Assembly (NCBI GenBank): GCA_965261665.1
Contig: OZ253467.1
Location: forward strand, 1,217,926-1,281,925
Direction of reading: 5' to 3'
DNA length: 64,000 bases
Source of the DNA: Dehalococcoidia bacterium
GTDB taxonomy: Bacteria > Chloroflexota > Dehalococcoidia > Lucifugimonadales > GCA-2712585
Part shown: positions 8,706 to 62,032 of the stretch, piece by piece
Layout: each line of letters opens with the position of its first letter
How positions within the stretch are numbered: position 1 is the first letter of the stretch
The notes under the pieces: model-generated
Database searches by the model: none
Told to the model about the DNA's origin: nothing
What the model saw: the letters and a program-made list of their open reading frames with translations, nothing else
Position numbers and translations under genes: made by a program

Positions 8706-8846
8706 TCAATGCTGACGAGATTCTTCGCTGTGCTCAGAATGACAGGTGGTGGGCGCAGAATGACAGGTTGGGGGGTAGAGTGACAGTTGGGGTGCAGAGT
8801 GACATATGGGGTGGGCAGAGAGGGCGGGTTTGAAACCCGCCCCTAT
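8706..8846 (+). repeat. mosaic of a gagattcttcg...gaatgac element, about 20-bp tandem (c)aga(a/g)tgaca units x4, and a REP-like hairpin
   Basis: gagattcttcgctgtgctcagaatgac is at 8717-8743, followed by cagaatgacagg / agagtgacag / cagagtgacat units. GGGCGGGTTTGAAACCCGCCCCTAT is at 8822-8846. Confidence 0.85.
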
Positions 8847-8938: not shown

Positions 8939-10309
8939 TCAATTGGGCTGGTAGATTTCGGTATCGGGGTAGAAATCCTTCCAGCCGAACCAGAAGGAGA
9001 GGGTGGTGGGTATCTGCTCCAGGTTCTTTCCGGCTAGTTCTCCCTCGACGGCTTCTCCGGTGAGGGCAAGCCAGCGAGTTTGCGTCTCGGTGTCTTGCAC
9101 GTATAGCGGTTCATCAGGTGAGGCTGCTTCGGGATTGAAAGGCTCGAAGGTGAGGGTCTGGTCGTCAACAACCCTGCTGAATACCACGCCGGCGCCGGAA
9201 TTAGCATCGAATGTTACCAGCACCGGCTCATCCCCTATGGCGTCGTTCACCACGGGCGTGTCGTTCAGGACGCTGAAGGGGTAGGCGCGGATTATGTCGT
9301 TATGGACCAGGCCGACGACATACTCTTTTGTGTACAGGCGGTTGTCGGTCCTGGTTTCGCCCAGAACGCCGGCGTCAGCGGCCTCATAGTATCGCGCATA
9401 CGGGTCGTTGCTTGATCTGCTTCCCTTTTCGAGGACGAGAGTGTCGGGGTGGAGCTCTGCCCACGTTTTCCAATCGGTCATCAGGGCGGGGAGGAGCTCC
9501 AGTTCGGTTTCCTTTAATTCTCCCTGGATGCCTCGACTCAAGAACTGGCTCCAGAGGGTATCAGTCTGGTGGTCGTACATGACGAGGGTGTTCATGACGA
9601 GCTTGCCGGATACGCCAAAGGTGAGGGTTTGGCTACCGATGTCGCGGGCAAAAACCATGCCCGTAAAGCAGAGGGGTCACCAGGTGGCCGCAATGGCCAC
9701 GCCTCCCAACTCGTCGTTGACGATTTCTCGGGAACTGAGGTAGGGAACGGAGTAGGCCTTGTGCTCACCGTTAATTGATACGCCGAGGACGGGTTCGTCG
9801 GCCAGGTACTGTTCCCACGCTTTGGTGGCGTCGATGAAAGTAGGGTCCAGGATGGCGGGGATACCGTCCTTGGGCAGGAGGGTGATGATTCTGAGGTTGG
9901 CGTCAGGGTTGTCGTCGGAGGGTGTGGGCGCCGGCGTTGGCGCAGGGGTTGTGGTTTGAGTGATGGGTTTGGGGGTGGCGGTAGTGGCTGCCGGCGTCGG
10001 GGTGCGCGGGGTTGTGGTGGGGGAAGGGGTAGAAGTAGAAGTCGTGGTAGGGCTGGAGGTGGAAGTGGGGGAAGGCGACGGCAGCGACGTGGGGCGGCTT
10101 TCGGGGGTTGGGGATGGCGATGGGCTTGTCGGTGGGACGGGGGTTGTGTCGGTGATGGAGAGCGTCGCCGGCGGAGGCGACGTGGATTCAACCGGCTGCG
10201 TCTGTGCTATGGGCTCCGGCGTGGGGGCTTGGCCGCATCCGCCTAGCGTCAGGGTTGACGCCAGGGCCAGCAGCGCGGCGGCCAGGGTGATTCCGCGAAA
10301 GTTCGTCAA
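8939..10309 (-). CDS. DUF3179-family lipoprotein with an in-frame UGA (9677-9679); candidate selenoprotein, or a pseudogene if there is no Sec decoding
   Basis: ORFs 9677..10309 and 8939..9658 share one frame and are separated only by TGA. Read-through gives ...VAIAATW[UGA]PLCFTGMVFARD.... The N-terminus has a lipobox (LTLGGC) and a roughly 110-aa Pro/Thr/Ser linker. The core carries PKDGIPAI...NGEHKAYS...LVMYDHQTDTLWSQ, typical of DUF3179. Confidence 0.6.
9645..9663 (-). promoter_or_regulatory. SECIS-like hairpin downstream of the in-frame UGA
   Basis: The mRNA reads UGA + 13 nt + CGGGCA-UGGUUUU-UGCCCG, a 6-bp perfect stem with GGU in a 7-nt loop. Confidence 0.45.
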
Positions 10310-10667
10310 TGGAGACCTCTCATTAGGGGAAAGGTGGTTGTGTTTGAAAGGGAAGCGTGGGCGCTTCGTGAAAGTCTATACGGAATCATTGAAAGAATGG
10401 ATGGGTTGGGAAGCTTTGGGGACTCATTTTTTTCGTTTTCGGTTGTTGCCGACTGGGAGGCATTCGATTTGGAAATCGAATCCGTGCCTGAGATCAATCG
10501 TTTTAGGCGTGGGATTCGTTTGAAAAAAGTCGGGGAATGAATCATGGGCGGAGGCAGCAGTGGGTCCGGGATGGTTGGAATTTATAGCTATTTGGAGGGT
10601 ATGCATGGATTTGTGGGAGGAGGGTAGCAGGGAAGGGGGATTTCGGCAATTGGAGGATGGCAGTGGG

Positions 10668-11100
10668 GGAGGGGTTCCTGCCCCCGTTTTCACGAGGGCA
10701 GGCTCTACGTGGGAACAACGGAGGGAGGGATGGGTCCCCGTCCCCCGTCTTCACGGGGCAGGATCTCGACGCGAGGACAAGGTGGGGAAGGGCGACAAGA
10801 TTTCTCGACTCCGCTGCGCTGTGCTCGGAATGATATGTGTGAGGTGGGGAAAGAGGATGGGGATGGATTTCCGCCGCGGCGGGAACAACGGAGGGAAAGA
10901 TGGGTCCCCGCATGCGGAGACCTTTGCATAACTACCGAAACGCATTCAGATAGTGGTGTGGGACGACTCTTGCCATAGCTAAATCATGGGATTCTGGATT
11001 CCGGCCTTCGCCGGAATGACGGATATGCAAAGGTCTCCATGCGCGAGGACACTGGAGGGTGCCCCCCTGAAGGGGGAGGGAAAGAGGGGGAGGGGATGAA
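10668..11100 (+). repeat. mosaic of short hairpin repeat families with a nested MITE
   Basis: ggttcctGCCCCCGttttcaCGAGGGCaggctct...gggaacaacgg is at 10671-10725, with related copies at 10727-10782 and 10858-10895. A gatttctcgactccgc...ggaatga element is at 10794-10836. A gggtccccgcatgc...gcgaggac element is split by the MITE. Confidence 0.85.
10916..11038 (-). mobile_element. 123-bp MITE, copy 1
   Basis: The terminal inverted repeats are GGAGACCTTTGCATAAC (10916-10932) and GATATGCAAAGGTCTCC (11022-11038). It is flanked by a 4-bp direct repeat ATGC (10912-10915 and 11039-11042). Removing the element and one ATGC restores gggtccccgcatgcgcgaggac. The internal gtcattccggc..ggaatccag hairpin is inverted relative to copy 2. 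Confidence 0.8.
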
Positions 11101-11210
11101 GGTGCCAATTTGTTAGGAAAGGGCATAGAATGTAGGTGTACGGTTGCGGACGCGCTCGGAAGGGCAACTTCCTTGTTACGACGGGACAGAGAAAAAGCAA
11201 GAAAGGTGGA

Positions 11211-16891: not shown

Positions 16892-18274
16892 CTAGATTCC
16901 CGTTTCGTAGACGCCGAAGGTGAAGGCGAACAGGGAAAAGTCCGAGGAGTTGGAACTGAGCTCCAGGTCGTAAGTACCGTACTCCGGCGCTTCGACTACG
17001 GCGTAGAGGCGGGCCTTATCCACGATGAGATAGCTCTTGCCATCGTCCTCGATAACGACGTCTTCGCCCTTGTTGAACTCGTTGAGATATTCGCCGTCGA
17101 GCTTGACCATGACTTTGAAGGTCTCGTCGCGCTCCGGGGTAAGCACCACGTTGACACTCTTGGCGGCGAAGCGCAGAAGCATATAGTCTTCGTAGTTGTT
17201 GGTATCGCGGGCGTGCCGCAGGCTCTCCCTTTCGGCCAGCCAGGAGCCCTGGAGATAGAGGCTGTGGGTGTCTCGATCGCCGGCGTCGGTGTATTCGACG
17301 ATCTGGTCCTTGGACTTGCAGTAATCCTGGGCGGCTATGGAGCTGTTGGCGTAGAGGCTGTAGAGGCTGCAGCTCCGGTCGTAGCCGCCGTAGAGTTCGG
17401 CGGTTATCTCTGCGCCGATGGAGTTCTTGAAGGCGAAGTCCAAGTCCTGGTTAGGGGCGGCCAGAGGGGCAACAGCGGAGAGGTTGACACCCGTCTCTTC
17501 TATGAGCTCGCGAATCATGGTCTCGGTTTCAGCGTAGGCTCCTTCGCCGTAGTGCTGGTAGCGGATAACGCCGTTCTGGTCGATGAGGTACTTGGCGGGC
17601 CAGTAGCGGTTGTTGAAGGCGTCCCAGGTGTCGAAGTTGTTGTCCTGCACAATGGGCCAGGTGAGGCTGTAGTCGGAAACGGCCTGACGGACGTTGTCAA
17701 TGTCATGCTCGAATTTAAACTCCGGGGTGTGGACACCGATGATAACGAGGCCATCGTCGGCGTACTTGGAATGCCAAACCTTGAGGTAGGGAAGAGTGCG
17801 GATGCAGTTGACGCAGGTGTAGGTCCAGAAGTCTATGAGGACTACTTTGCCGCGCAGTTCTTCTAGCTTCAGGGGGTCCGAGTTGACCCATTCCTGGGTA
17901 CCCACCAGTTCCGGGGCTAAGGGGCCCGTCGGCGGGGGTGGCTTTGGAGCGGGCTCGGGCGTCGATGGGGTGGGAACGGCGGTGGCGGTGATTGCTGGGG
18001 CTTGCGTGGGTGCAGACGTGGGGGCGGGGGTAGAAGCGGACGCTTGAGTGGGTGCGGGGGCCGGTGTTGAAGCGGATGTTTGAGTGGGGACGGAGGTGGG
18101 GGAGGGCATGGCTGTGGCCGCGGCGGCAGCGGTGGGACTGGCAGTTTGGGTAGATTGGGGCGCCGGGGTGGAAGTGGGGCGCTCGGACGAACAGGAGGCG
18201 ATGAGAAGGAGCGCCAGGGTGAGTAGGGAAGCAGCTAGAAGCAGGGTAACCTTCGGTATGCGGGCAGTTGTCAT
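16892..18274 (-). CDS. DipZ-like exported thioredoxin-domain lipoprotein
   Basis: It has a lipobox (LLIASCSS) and a roughly 100-aa Pro/Thr/Ala linker. The thioredoxin domain reads VVLIDFWTYTCVNCIRTLPY (CxxC), followed by a C-terminal beta-rich domain as in the DipZ C-terminal region. Confidence 0.8.
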   Translation of the reverse strand: MTTARIPKVTLLLAASLLTLALLLIASCSSERPTSTPAPQSTQTASPTAAAAATAMPSPTSVPTQTSASTPAPAPTQASASTPAPTSAPTQAPAITATAVPTPSTPEPAPKPPPPTGPLAPELVGTQEWVNSDPLKLEELRGKVVLIDFWTYTCVNCIRTLPYLKVWHSKYADDGLVIIGVHTPEFKFEHDIDNVRQAVSDYSLTWPIVQDNNFDTWDAFNNRYWPAKYLIDQNGVIRYQHYGEGAYAETETMIRELIEETGVNLSAVAPLAAPNQDLDFAFKNSIGAEITAELYGGYDRSCSLYSLYANSSIAAQDYCKSKDQIVEYTDAGDRDTHSLYLQGSWLAERESLRHARDTNNYEDYMLLRFAAKSVNVVLTPERDETFKVMVKLDGEYLNEFNKGEDVVIEDDGKSYLIVDKARLYAVVEAPEYGTYDLELSSNSSDFSLFAFTFGVYETGI

Positions 18275-25160: not shown

Positions 25161-26585
25161 GTGCGAAGGGGTCGCCGAGGTTCTGAAGGACGTTACAGCC
25201 CGGAGATCACTTTGAGTGTTGTGGATCTCAGCCGCGTGTACGAACTACAGATTGACGACGGCGACAACCGCCTCGGCGCGACGCGCGCAGCACTGGGCGC
25301 AAACTTGGATTTCCACGGCACGGACGGCAGCTACGGCTCCCACGCTTGGCACCCCTTCCCCGCGAAGTTCCCGCCGCAGTTGCCGGAGTTCATGATCCGC
25401 CATCTCTCAGACCCCGGAGACCTCGTTTTCGACCCAATGGTTGGCTCTGGGACTACGCTCGTCGAAGCCGTACGGCTCGGACGTCGAGCCGTTGGCTGCG
25501 ATATCGACCCGTTGGCGCGAATGATTACAGCAGCCAAGTTGACCCCGATTGACCCGTTTGCCGTCCTATGGGAGGGAAACGGGATCATAGCTGGTGCTAG
25601 TGACGACTATCACCGATTCCGTTGGAGGCTGGAAAGGGACTTTAGTCTGCGGTTCGACTCGAGGACAGAGCAGTTCATCCACTACTGGTTCCCGCCGCAG
25701 CAACAGCTTGAACTTCTTGCTCTAGTGCAGCGCATCGAAGCGCTGCCCAAGGGAGGCACTCGAGACTTCCTCAAGGTCGTATTCTCATCAACCATCATTG
25801 CCAAATCTGGCGGAGTATCTCTGGCGCGAGACCTAGCACACACCCGTCCTCACAGAGACACAGAAAAAACGCCAAAATCGGCCTTCGTAGAGTTTGGTAA
25901 GCGCCTACAGCGAAATGTGGCGGCTTTCGCCAAGAACAAGCTGACCGACAACATGATACCCTCCCGTCTCAGCGGGGCCGGTGAGGCTCGGGTATCTGCT
26001 CCCTTTATATCCATACACGCCGCAAGCGCTGCTGACACTGGCCTGCCGCCAGCTAGTGTAGACCTGATCGTGACATCGCCACCCTATGCGAACAATGCTA
26101 TCGACTATATGCGCGCGCACAAGTTCTCGCTAGTGTGGTTTGACTGGAAGATCGCCGACCTTGCCCGGATTCGCGCTCAATATGTAGGGCACGATGCGAT
26201 AGCTGGTCTGCGCTGCGACGGGCTGCCCAGTCAATGCGAAGAAACATTGGCAAAACTGGCGGAGCGTGACGAACGGAAGGCACTGGTATTGCGTCGCTAC
26301 TTCGAGGAGATGAAGACCGTGATTTGGGAGATGCTGCGAGTGTTGAAAAGAGGTAGGCCGGTTGTGATAGTCGTAGGGTCCTCGAGGTTACGAGGCTTGG
26401 ACGTAGAGACACATAAGGGACTCGCCGCCATTGGCGAAAATGCAGGTTTCATCCTAGCCGGAATTGGCACCCGCTTACTTGATCGGGACAAACGGATGAT
26501 GCCAGCGCGATGGGGCCGGCTACAGCAGTCACAGATCGAAGAGCGCATGTACAAAGAGTACGTGCTTGGATTTGTGAAGCCGTAA
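25161..26585 (+). CDS. DNA methyltransferase with SPPY catalytic motif (N4-cytosine/N6-adenine class, motif I before motif IV)
   Basis: Motif I is VFDPMVGSGTTLVEA at about residue 95. Motif IV is DLIVTSPPYANNAIDY at about residue 300. The stop overlaps the start of the downstream endonuclease (TAATG). The 5' start is uncertain. Confidence 0.8.
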   Translation: MRRGRRGSEGRYSPEITLSVVDLSRVYELQIDDGDNRLGATRAALGANLDFHGTDGSYGSHAWHPFPAKFPPQLPEFMIRHLSDPGDLVFDPMVGSGTTLVEAVRLGRRAVGCDIDPLARMITAAKLTPIDPFAVLWEGNGIIAGASDDYHRFRWRLERDFSLRFDSRTEQFIHYWFPPQQQLELLALVQRIEALPKGGTRDFLKVVFSSTIIAKSGGVSLARDLAHTRPHRDTEKTPKSAFVEFGKRLQRNVAAFAKNKLTDNMIPSRLSGAGEARVSAPFISIHAASAADTGLPPASVDLIVTSPPYANNAIDYMRAHKFSLVWFDWKIADLARIRAQYVGHDAIAGLRCDGLPSQCEETLAKLAERDERKALVLRRYFEEMKTVIWEMLRVLKRGRPVVIVVGSSRLRGLDVETHKGLAAIGENAGFILAGIGTRLLDRDKRMMPARWGRLQQSQIEERMYKEYVLGFVKP

Positions 26586-27421
26586 TGACAGGCAGGATCG
26601 AAGCTCTCAGACAGAATTATCACCGTCGAATTTGTAGTGAAGTGTTGAGGTTGCCTGCGTCAGGAATTCCTAGCAACGCCGATAAAGGAAGTACTTCGAG
26701 TGTCCGAATCGCTAAGGGTATTGTAGAGAACATTGGGCTTCCGCTGAAATCCGAAAGATTGCCAGGACAGACGGCGGGGCGTCGGTTCGAGGATGAGACA
26801 AGGCGCTTCTTGTGCGACGCATTTGGATTACTTTCTCATTTACGCCCGGGGAAATGGGATTTCTCGCTGGGCGGAGACATACGTGACTATGAGCAATACC
26901 TGCATTTGTCCGATGTGCGACGAGTAGTCGAACAGCATGAGGAGTTGCGTGTCATCTTCGGCGACTATATTGTCACGCCTGACATTGTTGTTTGCCGAGA
27001 GCCGGTTACAGATTCAGAGATCAACGAGAGCGAAGCCCTACTGAATGACGACGCCGTGGCTACCTACACGCCACTGCGACGCGTAAATTCGCAAGCGAAG
27101 ATCCTGCATGCGAGCGTGTCCTGCAAATGGACGATTCGCAGCGACCGGTCTCAAAACGCACGTACAGAGGGTCTGAACCTTGTGCGTAACCGAAAAGGCA
27201 AGACGCCGCATATAGTCGTCGTCGTAGGGGAACCTCTGCCTGGACGAATTGCGTCGCTTGCCTTTGGCACGGGTGATATCGACTGCATCTACCATTTCGC
27301 CCTGAGGGAACTGAGGGCCGCAGCTATGGATTGCGATTCGGACGCTGACATGTTGGACACACTCGTCACTGGCAGGAGGCTACGCGATATCAGTGACTTG
27401 CCATTTGACTTGGCTGCCTGA
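26585..27421 (+). CDS. type II restriction endonuclease, NgoMIV/Cfr10I-like
   Basis: 278 aa from the ATG at 26585. Along its length it resembles my recollection of R.NgoMIV: SERLPGQT, YIVTPDIVV, LHASVSCKWTIRSDRSQNARTEGLNLVRNRKG, PHIVVV, GTGDIDCIYHFAL, RLRDISDLPFDLA. This needs a REBASE/BLAST check. Confidence 0.7.
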   Translation: MTGRIEALRQNYHRRICSEVLRLPASGIPSNADKGSTSSVRIAKGIVENIGLPLKSERLPGQTAGRRFEDETRRFLCDAFGLLSHLRPGKWDFSLGGDIRDYEQYLHLSDVRRVVEQHEELRVIFGDYIVTPDIVVCREPVTDSEINESEALLNDDAVATYTPLRRVNSQAKILHASVSCKWTIRSDRSQNARTEGLNLVRNRKGKTPHIVVVVGEPLPGRIASLAFGTGDIDCIYHFALRELRAAAMDCDSDADMLDTLVTGRRLRDISDLPFDLAA

Positions 27422-38670: not shown

Positions 38671-38798
38671 AGCAGGCGATTCCCCCCAACAACGCTGACC
38701 GCATTCTACCAGCCCCCGCCCCTCCTAGAAACACCACTACCCACCCCGTATACACTGCCAGCCCTTCTGATGCCGCGCGTCATTCTCTAAAGTCACAT

Positions 38799-38837
38799 GT
38801 CATTCTGATCGCAGCGAAGCGGAGTCGAGGAATCTCG
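38799..38837 (-). repeat. gtcattctga...gaatctc short repeat (opposite orientation to the copies at 8717, 46989 and 59155)
   Basis: gtcattctgatcgcagcgaagcggagtcgaggaatctcg. Confidence 0.8.
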
Positions 38838-59154: not shown

Positions 59155-59227
59155 GAGATTCTTCGACTCCGCTTCGCTACGCTCAGAATGACATGTGGGG
59201 GCGCTTTGCTGCGTTCAGAATGACATG
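59155..59227 (+). repeat. gagattcttcg...gaatgac short repeat with a partial tandem second tail
   Basis: gagattcttcgactccgcttcgctacgctcagaatgac, then gcgttcagaatgacatg. Confidence 0.8.
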
Positions 59228-60298: not shown

Positions 60299-61011
60299 GA
60301 ATCCTCGTAATTAATATTGGTCAATATGGTTTCAGGGTCGACAACTGGCACTTGAGGCGCAATCGAAAATCTGCGCGCTGAACTTGGCACATCTCGAATC
60401 ACAGTAAATTGGCTTCCATGAGGCTGCCAAGTGAAGCGGTGAACACCGTTAGACTTGTCGGTACCCCACAAAGTACCTCGATGATTGAATTCCCAGCTGT
60501 AGTTCGAATTAACGAATCTCCGAGCTTCATCCTCGAAAAGCAGGAATTCCCTGTTGGCCATGTTTCTTACCAAAACGGCTATCCTAAGGTCGTTGAATTC
60601 GTCTAAAGCTTCATTGACCCTGGCATTCCAAATGTCCAGAACCGCTTTTCCGGTTTTATTGGCACTGGCGCGCGGGTCTGAAATTCCATGTGAATAGTCA
60701 GGAGAGTTTCGGCCGGAAATCAGTCGTACGGTTTTTGTCGAAAAAGGCTTTGCGGACTTGACTATTTTCAGGGACCAAGCGCACCGTTGGAGAAAAACGT
60801 CTGCAATACCTAAAGGAGTAGCTCTGTCAATGCCACCAACGGCTTTGGCGAAGAACTCGTCAAATTCCCCGGAACGCAAGTCGCGAAATCCGACTGCAAG
60901 CCTGTGGACAATTTGCTTGCCTAGCTCAAGGAGTACGGAATCGGGTATCTGTCCAAGTTCGTACGGTCCAGTGCGACGTTTCCGCTGGCCTCGTAACCGC
61001 GTCTTCCTCAA
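60277..61011 (-). CDS. putative type II restriction endonuclease (partner of the C5-methyltransferase)
   Basis: 244-aa ORF between dcm-like and vsr on the same strand with overlapping ends. A possible PD-(D/E)xK-like core is IADV...AWSLKIVK. No family was recognised and the start is uncertain. Confidence 0.5.
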   Translation of the reverse strand: MRKTRLRGQRKRRTGPYELGQIPDSVLLELGKQIVHRLAVGFRDLRSGEFDEFFAKAVGGIDRATPLGIADVFLQRCAWSLKIVKSAKPFSTKTVRLISGRNSPDYSHGISDPRASANKTGKAVLDIWNARVNEALDEFNDLRIAVLVRNMANREFLLFEDEARRFVNSNYSWEFNHRGTLWGTDKSNGVHRFTWQPHGSQFTVIRDVPSSARRFSIAPQVPVVDPETILTNINYEDSWIQIQA

Positions 61012-62032
61012 TTACCTTCACCACCTGCTCAATAACTGCCTGAACCATCGGAACAGGCACGGCGTTGCCAGCCTGCTTCCGGGTTTGAGAGTCGTTGCAA
61101 AGTATTTGCCATGAATCCGGGAATCCCTGTAATCGCAGCAATTCCCGGGGCGTCGGGCGACGTTCGCCGTCTAAAAGCAAGTAATTGTAAGAAGCATTCG
61201 CTCGCAAGGCGCAAGACCATTCGTGACTCGAAATGTTGCCACCCTTATTTTCGTGCCAGATTGCGGGAGATACTGACGCGGAATGAGCCGCCTTGCGCTT
61301 AGCGCGAATCTTCTCTGATGCGAAGTGCTTTGGGTCCGGATTCGGTTCCAAGAGATCCGCCAACGGGCGCATTGGCATTTGTTCCTCTGGCCACTGGAAT
61401 CTTGTGAACGGGACTTGGGTGGCGACGATAATTGTCCGCTCTCGTTTTTGTGGAAGTCCGAAGTCTAGAGCGTTCAGCACCTTGGACTCAACTGTATACC
61501 CGAGGTTGTGGAGGTCAGTAATGATGCGAAGCAACACTTGCCCTCTCTGAGCGGTCGACAGTTGCTTCACATTTTCCAGGACAATTCCCTGAGGGCGTTT
61601 CGCTTGGATTACTCGCAGAATCTCAAAAAATAATGTCCCCCTAGGGTCTTCAAAACCTTTCCGTTGACCGATAATGGAGAAGGGTTGGCACGGAAAGCCG
61701 GCGAAAAGCAAATCGTGGTCTGGCACGTCGGAGGCGTCCAAAGCCGCAATGTCACCTGCGGGTTCAAGTGCAAAGTTGTGCTCGTATGCTTTCCGAGTCT
61801 CTGGATCTATGTCACACGCAAAGACGACATCAAGACCCAAGTTGCGGGCGGCTACGTGGAATCCACCGATGCCGCTAAAGAAATCCGCACACCTTAGCGG
61901 CAATTTGTCGTCTGCAACTGGAAACTCCAGCAACGCAGTTGCGTGGTTTGCTGCATGGCCGTTGCTTCGCACGGCATCCTCCACTTCATCAAGCCTCTGT
62001 TGGATGATATATCTTGCATTCCGAGCCGTCAA
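60926..62032 (-). CDS. DNA (cytosine-5)-methyltransferase
   Basis: Motif I is DFFSGIGGF, motif IV GFPCQPFS, motif VI LENV, motif VIII QKRERTIIV and motif X GNAVPVPM. Confidence 0.92.
   Translation of the reverse strand: MTARNARYIIQQRLDEVEDAVRSNGHAANHATALLEFPVADDKLPLRCADFFSGIGGFHVAARNLGLDVVFACDIDPETRKAYEHNFALEPAGDIAALDASDVPDHDLLFAGFPCQPFSIIGQRKGFEDPRGTLFFEILRVIQAKRPQGIVLENVKQLSTAQRGQVLLRIITDLHNLGYTVESKVLNALDFGLPQKRERTIIVATQVPFTRFQWPEEQMPMRPLADLLEPNPDPKHFASEKIRAKRKAAHSASVSPAIWHENKGGNISSHEWSCALRANASYNYLLLDGERRPTPRELLRLQGFPDSWQILCNDSQTRKQAGNAVPVPMVQAVIEQVVKVIEEDAVTRPAETSHWTVRTWTDTRFRTP

Follow-up and report, generated by a model that had tools for sequence, protein, structure and literature searches.

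On the minus strand of the 64-kb stretch of DNA analyzed here (hereafter the window), two open reading frames follow each other in one frame with a single TGA between them, and the question arises whether they are two genes, the remains of a broken one, or one gene in which UGA encodes selenocysteine (Sec). The upstream ORF (10309->9680) comprises 210 codons from a TTG start and ends with W210 at 9682-9680; the downstream ORF (9658->8939) comprises 239 codons from an ATG start and has its stop at 8941-8939; the sole intervening stop is TGA 9679-9677. Direct reading of the minus strand bears out this arrangement, which the first-pass annotation of the window had described, and the read-through peptide quoted there, ...ELGGVAIAATW-[UGA]-PLCFTGMVFARDIGSQ..., matches the translation. 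We conclude, with a probability of about 0.93, that the region 8939-10309 is one functional gene, a Sec-containing member of the DUF3179 family (PF11376) whose UGA is decoded as Sec. The coordinates of the relevant features are collected in Table 1.

Table 1. Features of the DUF3179 locus and positions of a dispersed repeat in the window (the Sec and SECIS assignments are the proposed ones).
Feature	Position	Strand	Remark
Proposed selenoprotein gene, complete	8939..10309	minus	456 codons plus terminal TGA stop at 8941-8939
Start codon TTG	10309-10307	minus	first codon of the DUF3179 gene
Putative Shine-Dalgarno-like GAGAGG	10316..10321	minus	6 nt upstream of the TTG start
Predicted lipoprotein signal peptide, residues 1-25, lipobox L22-G23-G24-C25	10235..10309	minus	sequence
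Pro/Thr/Ser-rich low-complexity linker, residues ~26-140 (~115 residues)	9890..10234	minus	composition
DUF3179 (PF11376) domain, residues 147-450	8960..9871	minus	profile match, spans the UGA
In-frame UGA, proposed Sec211, first position of U-P-L-C	9677..9679	minus	Cys column in homologs; TGA in 79/79 loci
Cys214 (TGC), proposed Sec partner in U-x-x-C	9668..9670	minus	invariant in the family alignment
SECIS-type hairpin, 6-bp stem CGGGCA/UGCCCG, 7-nt loop UGGUUUU	9645..9663	minus	13 nt after the UGA
Copies of the ~22-nt repeat	8723-8744, 10814-10835, 38798-38819, 59172-59193, 59204-59225		dispersed, intergenic

One gene interrupted by one codon

When Cys is placed at the UGA, the merged 456-aa product matches the complete PF11376 profile (positions 1-292 of 292, E = 1.7e-85) with a score of 287.5 bits against a cut-off of 27. 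Because this match runs across the UGA, we regard the two ORFs as one gene interrupted by one codon. Both halves had been described as undamaged, and the lipobox, the Pro/Thr linker and the complete core are indeed all present. Upstream of the gene, GAGAGG looks like a Shine-Dalgarno element when read off the sequence; no convincing sigma-70 promoter was found there.

The non-coding stretch upstream of the gene (10310-11135) is unusually long and contains the short repeats GGGAACAACGGAGGGA..GATGGGTCCCCG at 10711-10740 and 10881-10910. A further intergenic repeat of ~22 nt, TGTCATTCTGAGCACAGCGAAG with its variants, occurs in five copies in the window, compared with none expected by chance; two of these copies flank the DUF3179 gene.

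The UGA position in homologs

A search of 5.8 billion proteins yielded 2,544 relatives. About half of the best 120 of them are only 230-245 aa long and cover just the C-terminal ~73% of the query, and such entries of ~235 aa are what gene callers would produce on meeting a common in-frame stop. The full-length homologs carry Cys at the UGA column, within VTWCPLC in the nearest relatives and ITYCPLC in others; one homolog (P0059) has Ser. The family motif (V)TYCPLC given in the first-pass annotation is thus right in substance, and the Cys that it placed at this column is found. In an alignment of 52 sequences, P79, L80 and C81 (numbering of the query) are invariant, C81 being the second Cys of the motif.

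For a comparison at the DNA level we used 80 loci from a collection with one genome per species. TGA occupies the identical codon (W-[TGA]-P-L-C) in all 79 informative loci, the 80th being cut off before the site; in all, there are 83 TGA sites. The 79 loci span protein identities from 95% down to ~45%, with intact reading frames on both sides of the TGA. They belong mostly to Chloroflexota (Dehalococcoidia, Anaerolineae, Ardenticatenaceae, Promineifilaceae, Caldilineae, SAR202) and include several complete long-read Dehalococcoidia chromosomes as well as one SAR202 single-cell genome. Very close to the window are the complete chromosome OZ250180.1 and the contig CBDCSX010000002.1, with 94-95% protein identity. 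Two Sec-form loci bear labels from outside the Chloroflexota: L020 (JBLIMP010000013.1, Cellvibrionaceae) and L066 (RFHZ01000846.1, Nitrospinota). L020 encodes a protein of the kind usual in the Anaerolineae clade (56% identity, same SECIS type), and the odd label of this locus could reflect a binning error or a horizontal transfer.

These data bear directly on the idea that the gene is a pseudogene, or that an error in sequencing or assembly put TGA in the place of TGC or TGT. Cys forms with TGC or TGT, which differ from TGA by a single nucleotide, do occur in the family, and gene callers split the gene in two, both of which would fit such an origin. Against it stands the recurrence of this TGA at one and the same codon in the independent assemblies of 79 species, long-read chromosomes and a single-cell genome among them. 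Furthermore, purifying selection on the two intact halves is obvious, decayed halves were found in none of the 79 species-level loci, and the downstream hairpin described below is conserved together with the TGA and is eroded in Cys forms. Both versions of this rival are therefore effectively refuted, and we assign them next to no probability.

A hairpin downstream of the UGA

The hairpin CGGGCA-UGGUUUU-UGCCCG, previously proposed to lie at 9645-9663 after a 13-nt spacer and to expose GGU, is found at exactly these coordinates, with the GGU of the loop at 9656-9654. Single-sequence folding of a 63-nt segment gives z = -0.86, and 43 of 200 shuffled sequences fold as well; since this test is not significant, it was dropped and a comparative analysis was used instead. 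At the gathering threshold, Rfam recognizes only a tRNA in the window and no SECIS family.

The 80 sequences align without gaps, and counted from the U of UGA they have in common a stem at nt 17-23 and 29-35. The dinucleotide GU at +25/+26 is invariant in all 80. Two versions of the stem-loop can be distinguished: in the clade of the window (peptide TGMVFAR) 6 bp enclose a 7-nt loop, and in the clade with TGIVY(A/S)R 7 bp enclose the 5-nt loop CGUGU. When the structure is imposed in register, 89.4% of the cells are paired, compared with at most 62% in any slid register, and the observed covariation score is reached by none of 500 shuffles. Alignment columns 27 and 37, for example, pair as CG in 57 sequences, AU in 13, GU in 5, and UA and UG in one each. 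Where C-G has given way to A-U in this stem, a silent change in a Gly codon (GGC->GGA) goes together with the replacement of Ala by Ser (GCC->UCC), and one locus (L032) displays a double compensatory change (GCUAU...AUAGC). RNAalifold, applied to the alignment of 80 sequences, returns only the central 4 bp; the pair counts given here therefore refer to an explicit structure of 7+3 bp and not to the RNAalifold output. The outer helix of 3 bp, formed by columns 19-21 and 43-45, is weak, each of its pairs being open in 9-23 of 78 sequences, and is not claimed.

Part of the conservation of the stem is due to coding constraint, because the stem overlaps the sequence that encodes the conserved peptide. 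The comparison of sequences strongly supports the hairpin as a putative SECIS element. Bacterial SECIS elements are hairpins right after the UGA, with the apical loop ~20 nt downstream and GU in the loop; in E. coli fdhF, a minimal stem-loop begins ~11 nt after the UGA and is characterized by G23/U24 and a bulged U17. Like the fdhF element, the hairpin of the window lies inside the coding sequence directly 3' of the UGA, has G and U in the apical loop, and places this loop ~20 nt from the UGA. Unlike it, the DUF3179 stem is short (6-7 bp), perfect and without a bulged U in its upper part, and the loop is UGGUUUU or CGUGU rather than of the GGUC type.

An alternative reading takes the UGA as a true stop, so that an N-terminal lipoprotein fragment would be released and a C-terminal fragment re-initiated at the AUG of 9658, with the hairpin serving termination and re-initiation or mRNA stability. 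Indeed, the clade of the window has an ATG 19 nt beyond the TGA, and public databases hold many C-terminal entries of ~235 aa. Yet most of the family has no counterpart of the AUG at 9658: the I-V-Y clade lacks one there, and gene callers begin its entries at other codons. No conserved Shine-Dalgarno sequence precedes 9658, where the stretch in question is the SECIS stem. At the protein level, the C-terminal fragment would be left without the signal peptide and without the invariant Cys214, one predicted fold would be divided within a beta-hairpin, and the stop would sit exactly on the Cys column. We consider separate translation of two fragments extremely improbable.

Sec and Cys forms compared

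If the hairpin serves the decoding of UGA as Sec, the natural controls are homologs with Cys at the same position. In fixed register, the Sec forms (n=84) have on average 6.6 of 7 stem pairs, the Cys forms (n=10) 4.0 of 7. For the Thr in the 5' arm, whose codon is four-fold degenerate, 80 of 84 Sec forms use ACG, compared with only 2 of 10 Cys forms. By Mann-Whitney tests that are not corrected for phylogeny, the two groups differ in the number of pairs (p = 1.8e-8) and in local folding energy (2.6e-5).

Two loci contain tandem arrays of DUF3179 genes in which Sec and Cys forms are mixed: L081 (3014-8569) with three TGA copies and one TGC copy, and L083 (4802-7179) with one of each. Both arrays have pheST on one side and, on the other, a very large permease with an FtsX domain together with ABC ATPases. 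The TGA and TGC paralogs of L081 all encode PLCFTGIVYARE, but the stem is a perfect 8 bp in the TGA copies and contains a mismatch in the TGC copy. The hairpin thus tracks the UGA and not the peptide. That the TGC copy still retains 6 of 7 SECIS pairs suggests a recent conversion from Sec to Cys.

The SECIS-like hairpin proposed from the single sequence is accordingly kept in register, covaries and is degraded in Cys forms. Together with the Cys column and the TGA in 79 of 79 loci, the hairpin comparison supports the original proposal of Sec decoding over that of a pseudogene.

Selenocysteine machinery and genetic code

UGA could also be read through without any Sec pathway, either by genome-wide reassignment to Trp or Gly, as is known from some uncultured bacterial lineages, or by near-cognate suppression inserting Cys or Trp. 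What speaks for this explanation is that the Sec machinery was not found in the 64-kb window: ARAGORN and Rfam detect no tRNA-Sec, and Pfam detects no SelA, SelB or SelD domains among the 30 largest ORFs. ARAGORN likewise detects no tRNA-Sec in the flanks of 60 related loci, ~0.4 Mb in total. However, TGA terminates 17 of the 62 ORFs of the window, and only in the DUF3179 gene does protein-like sequence flank a TGA on both sides; as TGA works as a normal stop in the rest of the window, the code is not reassigned. A scan for in-frame TGA codons gave only spurious high-GC antisense frames and no second selenoprotein gene in the window. Moreover, the UGA stands for Cys specifically, a SECIS-type hairpin follows at the canonical distance, and DUF3179 is catalogued as a selenoprotein family (see below). 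Read-through without Sec is thus very improbable in our view.

The use of Sec is documented for Dehalococcoidia and Anaerolineales. BSepDB lists Dehalococcoidia metagenome-assembled genomes with 46 and 49 selenoprotein genes (PMC13326102), Anaerolineales single-cell genomes contain SelB and Sec-containing formate dehydrogenases (PMC4959059), and selenoproteins of Chloroflexi were already counted in 2006 (PMC1794560).

Domain architecture and predicted fold

The predicted signal peptide ends in ...LASTLTLGG followed by C25, which fits the lipobox pattern [LVI][ASTVIG][GAS]C. In the linker behind it, the fraction of Pro, Thr and Ser reaches 0.93 in a 40-residue window. Linkers this rich are limited to the Dehalococcoidia clade of the window itself, where the fraction is 0.68-0.85 in L001-L011 with the exception of L009. 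Among the N-termini of Sec forms, 50 of 84 possess a lipobox and 12 more a signal-anchor helix, according to a crude heuristic of regular expression and hydrophobicity; Cys forms, too, have lipoboxes or N-terminal transmembrane helices. Judging from these sequences, the localization of the family looks extracytoplasmic throughout.

We generated an AlphaFold2 model for a Cys homolog (P0027) that is 49% identical to the protein of the window (mean pLDDT 86.9, >95 across the domain, pTM 0.80). The model consists of two beta-rich halves with an identical order of secondary-structure elements, and it places U/C-P-L-C on a turn between two strands, i.e. on a beta-hairpin. The duplication is visible in the sequence as well, where GG-P-[IV]-AVTW-CPLC-FTG-IVY-R of the first half corresponds to VV-FD-xxxx-TG-VF-R of the second. 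The Cys pair is confined to the first half, the second being without it. We accordingly predict that the DUF3179 domain is a beta-rich module duplicated in tandem.

No PDB entries related to DUF3179 by sequence were found, and NCBIfam has no match to the product. Genomic context is equally unspecific. There are no universally conserved neighbor genes around DUF3179 loci; the synteny with genes for a PGI-like protein, an amidohydrolase, RpiB and a ROK kinase is kept only within the clade of the window, and for this reason context gives no functional clue. FtsX and ABC transporter genes are neighbors at L081 and L083 but not in general.

Some other genes of the window may be mentioned here. A minus-strand gene at 16895-18274, 7 kb from the selenoprotein gene, encodes a 460-aa protein with AhpC/TSA-Redoxin and Thioredoxin_10 domains, probably a thiol-disulfide oxidoreductase; it has no in-frame TGA. 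Restriction-modification genes occur at 25161-27418 and 60929-62032: an N6/N4 DNA methylase adjoins an NgoMIV-type restriction enzyme (E = 2e-102), and a C-5 cytosine methyltransferase is encoded separately.

Relation to known selenoproteins and folds

The first-pass annotation had left it an open question whether a Sec form of DUF3179 had been described. The answer is yes: the DUF3179 domain-containing protein (PF11376, motif UxxC/T) is an established prokaryotic selenoprotein family (PMC9312934, Biomolecules 2022; PMC13188914, Appl Environ Microbiol 2026), with MBW1804167.1 and MDJ0986319.1 as example accessions in these two papers. Both catalogues credit Zhang & Gladyshev 2007 (NAR 35:4952; PMC1976440), who presented six new families from the metagenome of the Olavius algarvensis symbionts with Sec/Cys alignments and SECIS predictions. 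Judging by the order of the tables rather than by any statement in the papers, DUF3179 is probably the 'OS_HP1' of 2007. The gene of the window is consequently a member of a known selenoprotein family, whose Sec form has been known since that year. It shares with the catalogued proteins the Pfam family, Sec as the first residue of U-x-x-C, the existence of Cys homologs, and a SECIS-like hairpin immediately 3'. The catalogued form derives from a deltaproteobacterial symbiont, whereas the copy of the window lies in a Dehalococcoidia-type genome and has a long Pro/Thr linker; this is no difference in kind. None of the papers found by our literature search addresses the function of DUF3179, and none of them reports experimental incorporation of selenium into a DUF3179 protein.

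Other selenoproteins with UxxC or CxxU include DsbA-like and thioredoxin-like proteins, the heavy-metal-associated (HMA) domain of cation-transporting ATPases, and proteins similar to MerT or mercuric reductase (PMC9312934). In these, as in DUF3179, Sec and Cys form a pair two residues apart, and homologs with Cys in place of Sec exist in other organisms. The DUF3179 fold, in contrast, is neither thioredoxin-like nor of the ferredoxin-like HMA type, so that no functional annotation can be transferred from these proteins.

Foldseek searches of the PDB with the P0027 model yield weak partial matches of ~100 residues, all of them to beta-domains of the Rieske/NirD type (E = 0.016-0.27, probability 0.9-1.0, target-normalised TM-score up to 0.58). 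These domains (PDB 3c0d, 4aiv, 8hn2, 5cxm) are three-sheet beta-domains, and their likeness to the model is weak, with E-values above the confident threshold. In the model, U/CxxC would be located on a hairpin turn as in metal-binding knuckles. The Rieske ligands CxH...CxxH are absent: no His is found among the invariant residues, and there is only one U/CxxC pair. With the ligands missing and the fold likeness weak, identity as a Rieske [2Fe-2S] protein was rejected.

Proposed mechanism and function

According to our model, UGA 9679-9677 would be decoded as Sec during translation, with the hairpin 9663-9645 acting as a bacterial SECIS element that recruits SelB with Sec-tRNA(Sec), by analogy with known bacterial Sec insertion. 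The product would be a prolipoprotein of 456 aa that, as its sequence suggests, is exported and carries its lipid anchor at Cys25, on the outer side of the cytoplasmic membrane, where the Pro/Thr-rich linker would hold the domain away from the membrane. The U-P-L-C motif is present in the first module only, on the turn of the predicted beta-hairpin.

Sec/Cys pairs, as a general rule, mark catalytic redox cysteines, and to our knowledge no member of the DUF3179 family has been characterized. Because of this rule, and given the weak fold match, we propose by analogy that the protein most likely performs redox chemistry on an extracytoplasmic substrate by means of a selenol/thiol (selenenylsulfide) pair. 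Alternatively, the Sec/Cys pair could bind a soft metal or metalloid.

Consequences for annotation and for the family

In terms of annotation, the DUF3179 gene should be recorded as one selenoprotein and not as two ORFs. The correction extends beyond the window, as dozens of public DUF3179 entries of 230-245 aa (P0001-P0022, P0071 and others) appear to be C-terminal fragments of Sec forms, cut short at the UGA. P0071, for instance, is an NCBI entry from a SAR202 single-cell genome, and the matching locus L012 has TGA. The absence of an NCBIfam model may explain this systematic split.

The comparison of loci also supports, with unusual clarity, a SECIS element that lies inside conserved coding sequence, with natural controls in the form of Sec and Cys paralogs. 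For the Chloroflexota, it shows that this orphan family is very widespread in the phylum as an extracytoplasmic selenoprotein. As a tentative suggestion, which we ourselves regard as rather unlikely, the Sec form may prevail over the Cys form in DUF3179 of Chloroflexota, and the protein may represent an uncharacterized class of membrane-anchored extracytoplasmic selenol enzyme, or metal(loid) handler, whose fold would be a duplicated Rieske-like beta-structure that presents U-x-x-C on a hairpin knuckle. If true, this would be a combination of chemistry and fold that is absent among the characterized selenoproteins.
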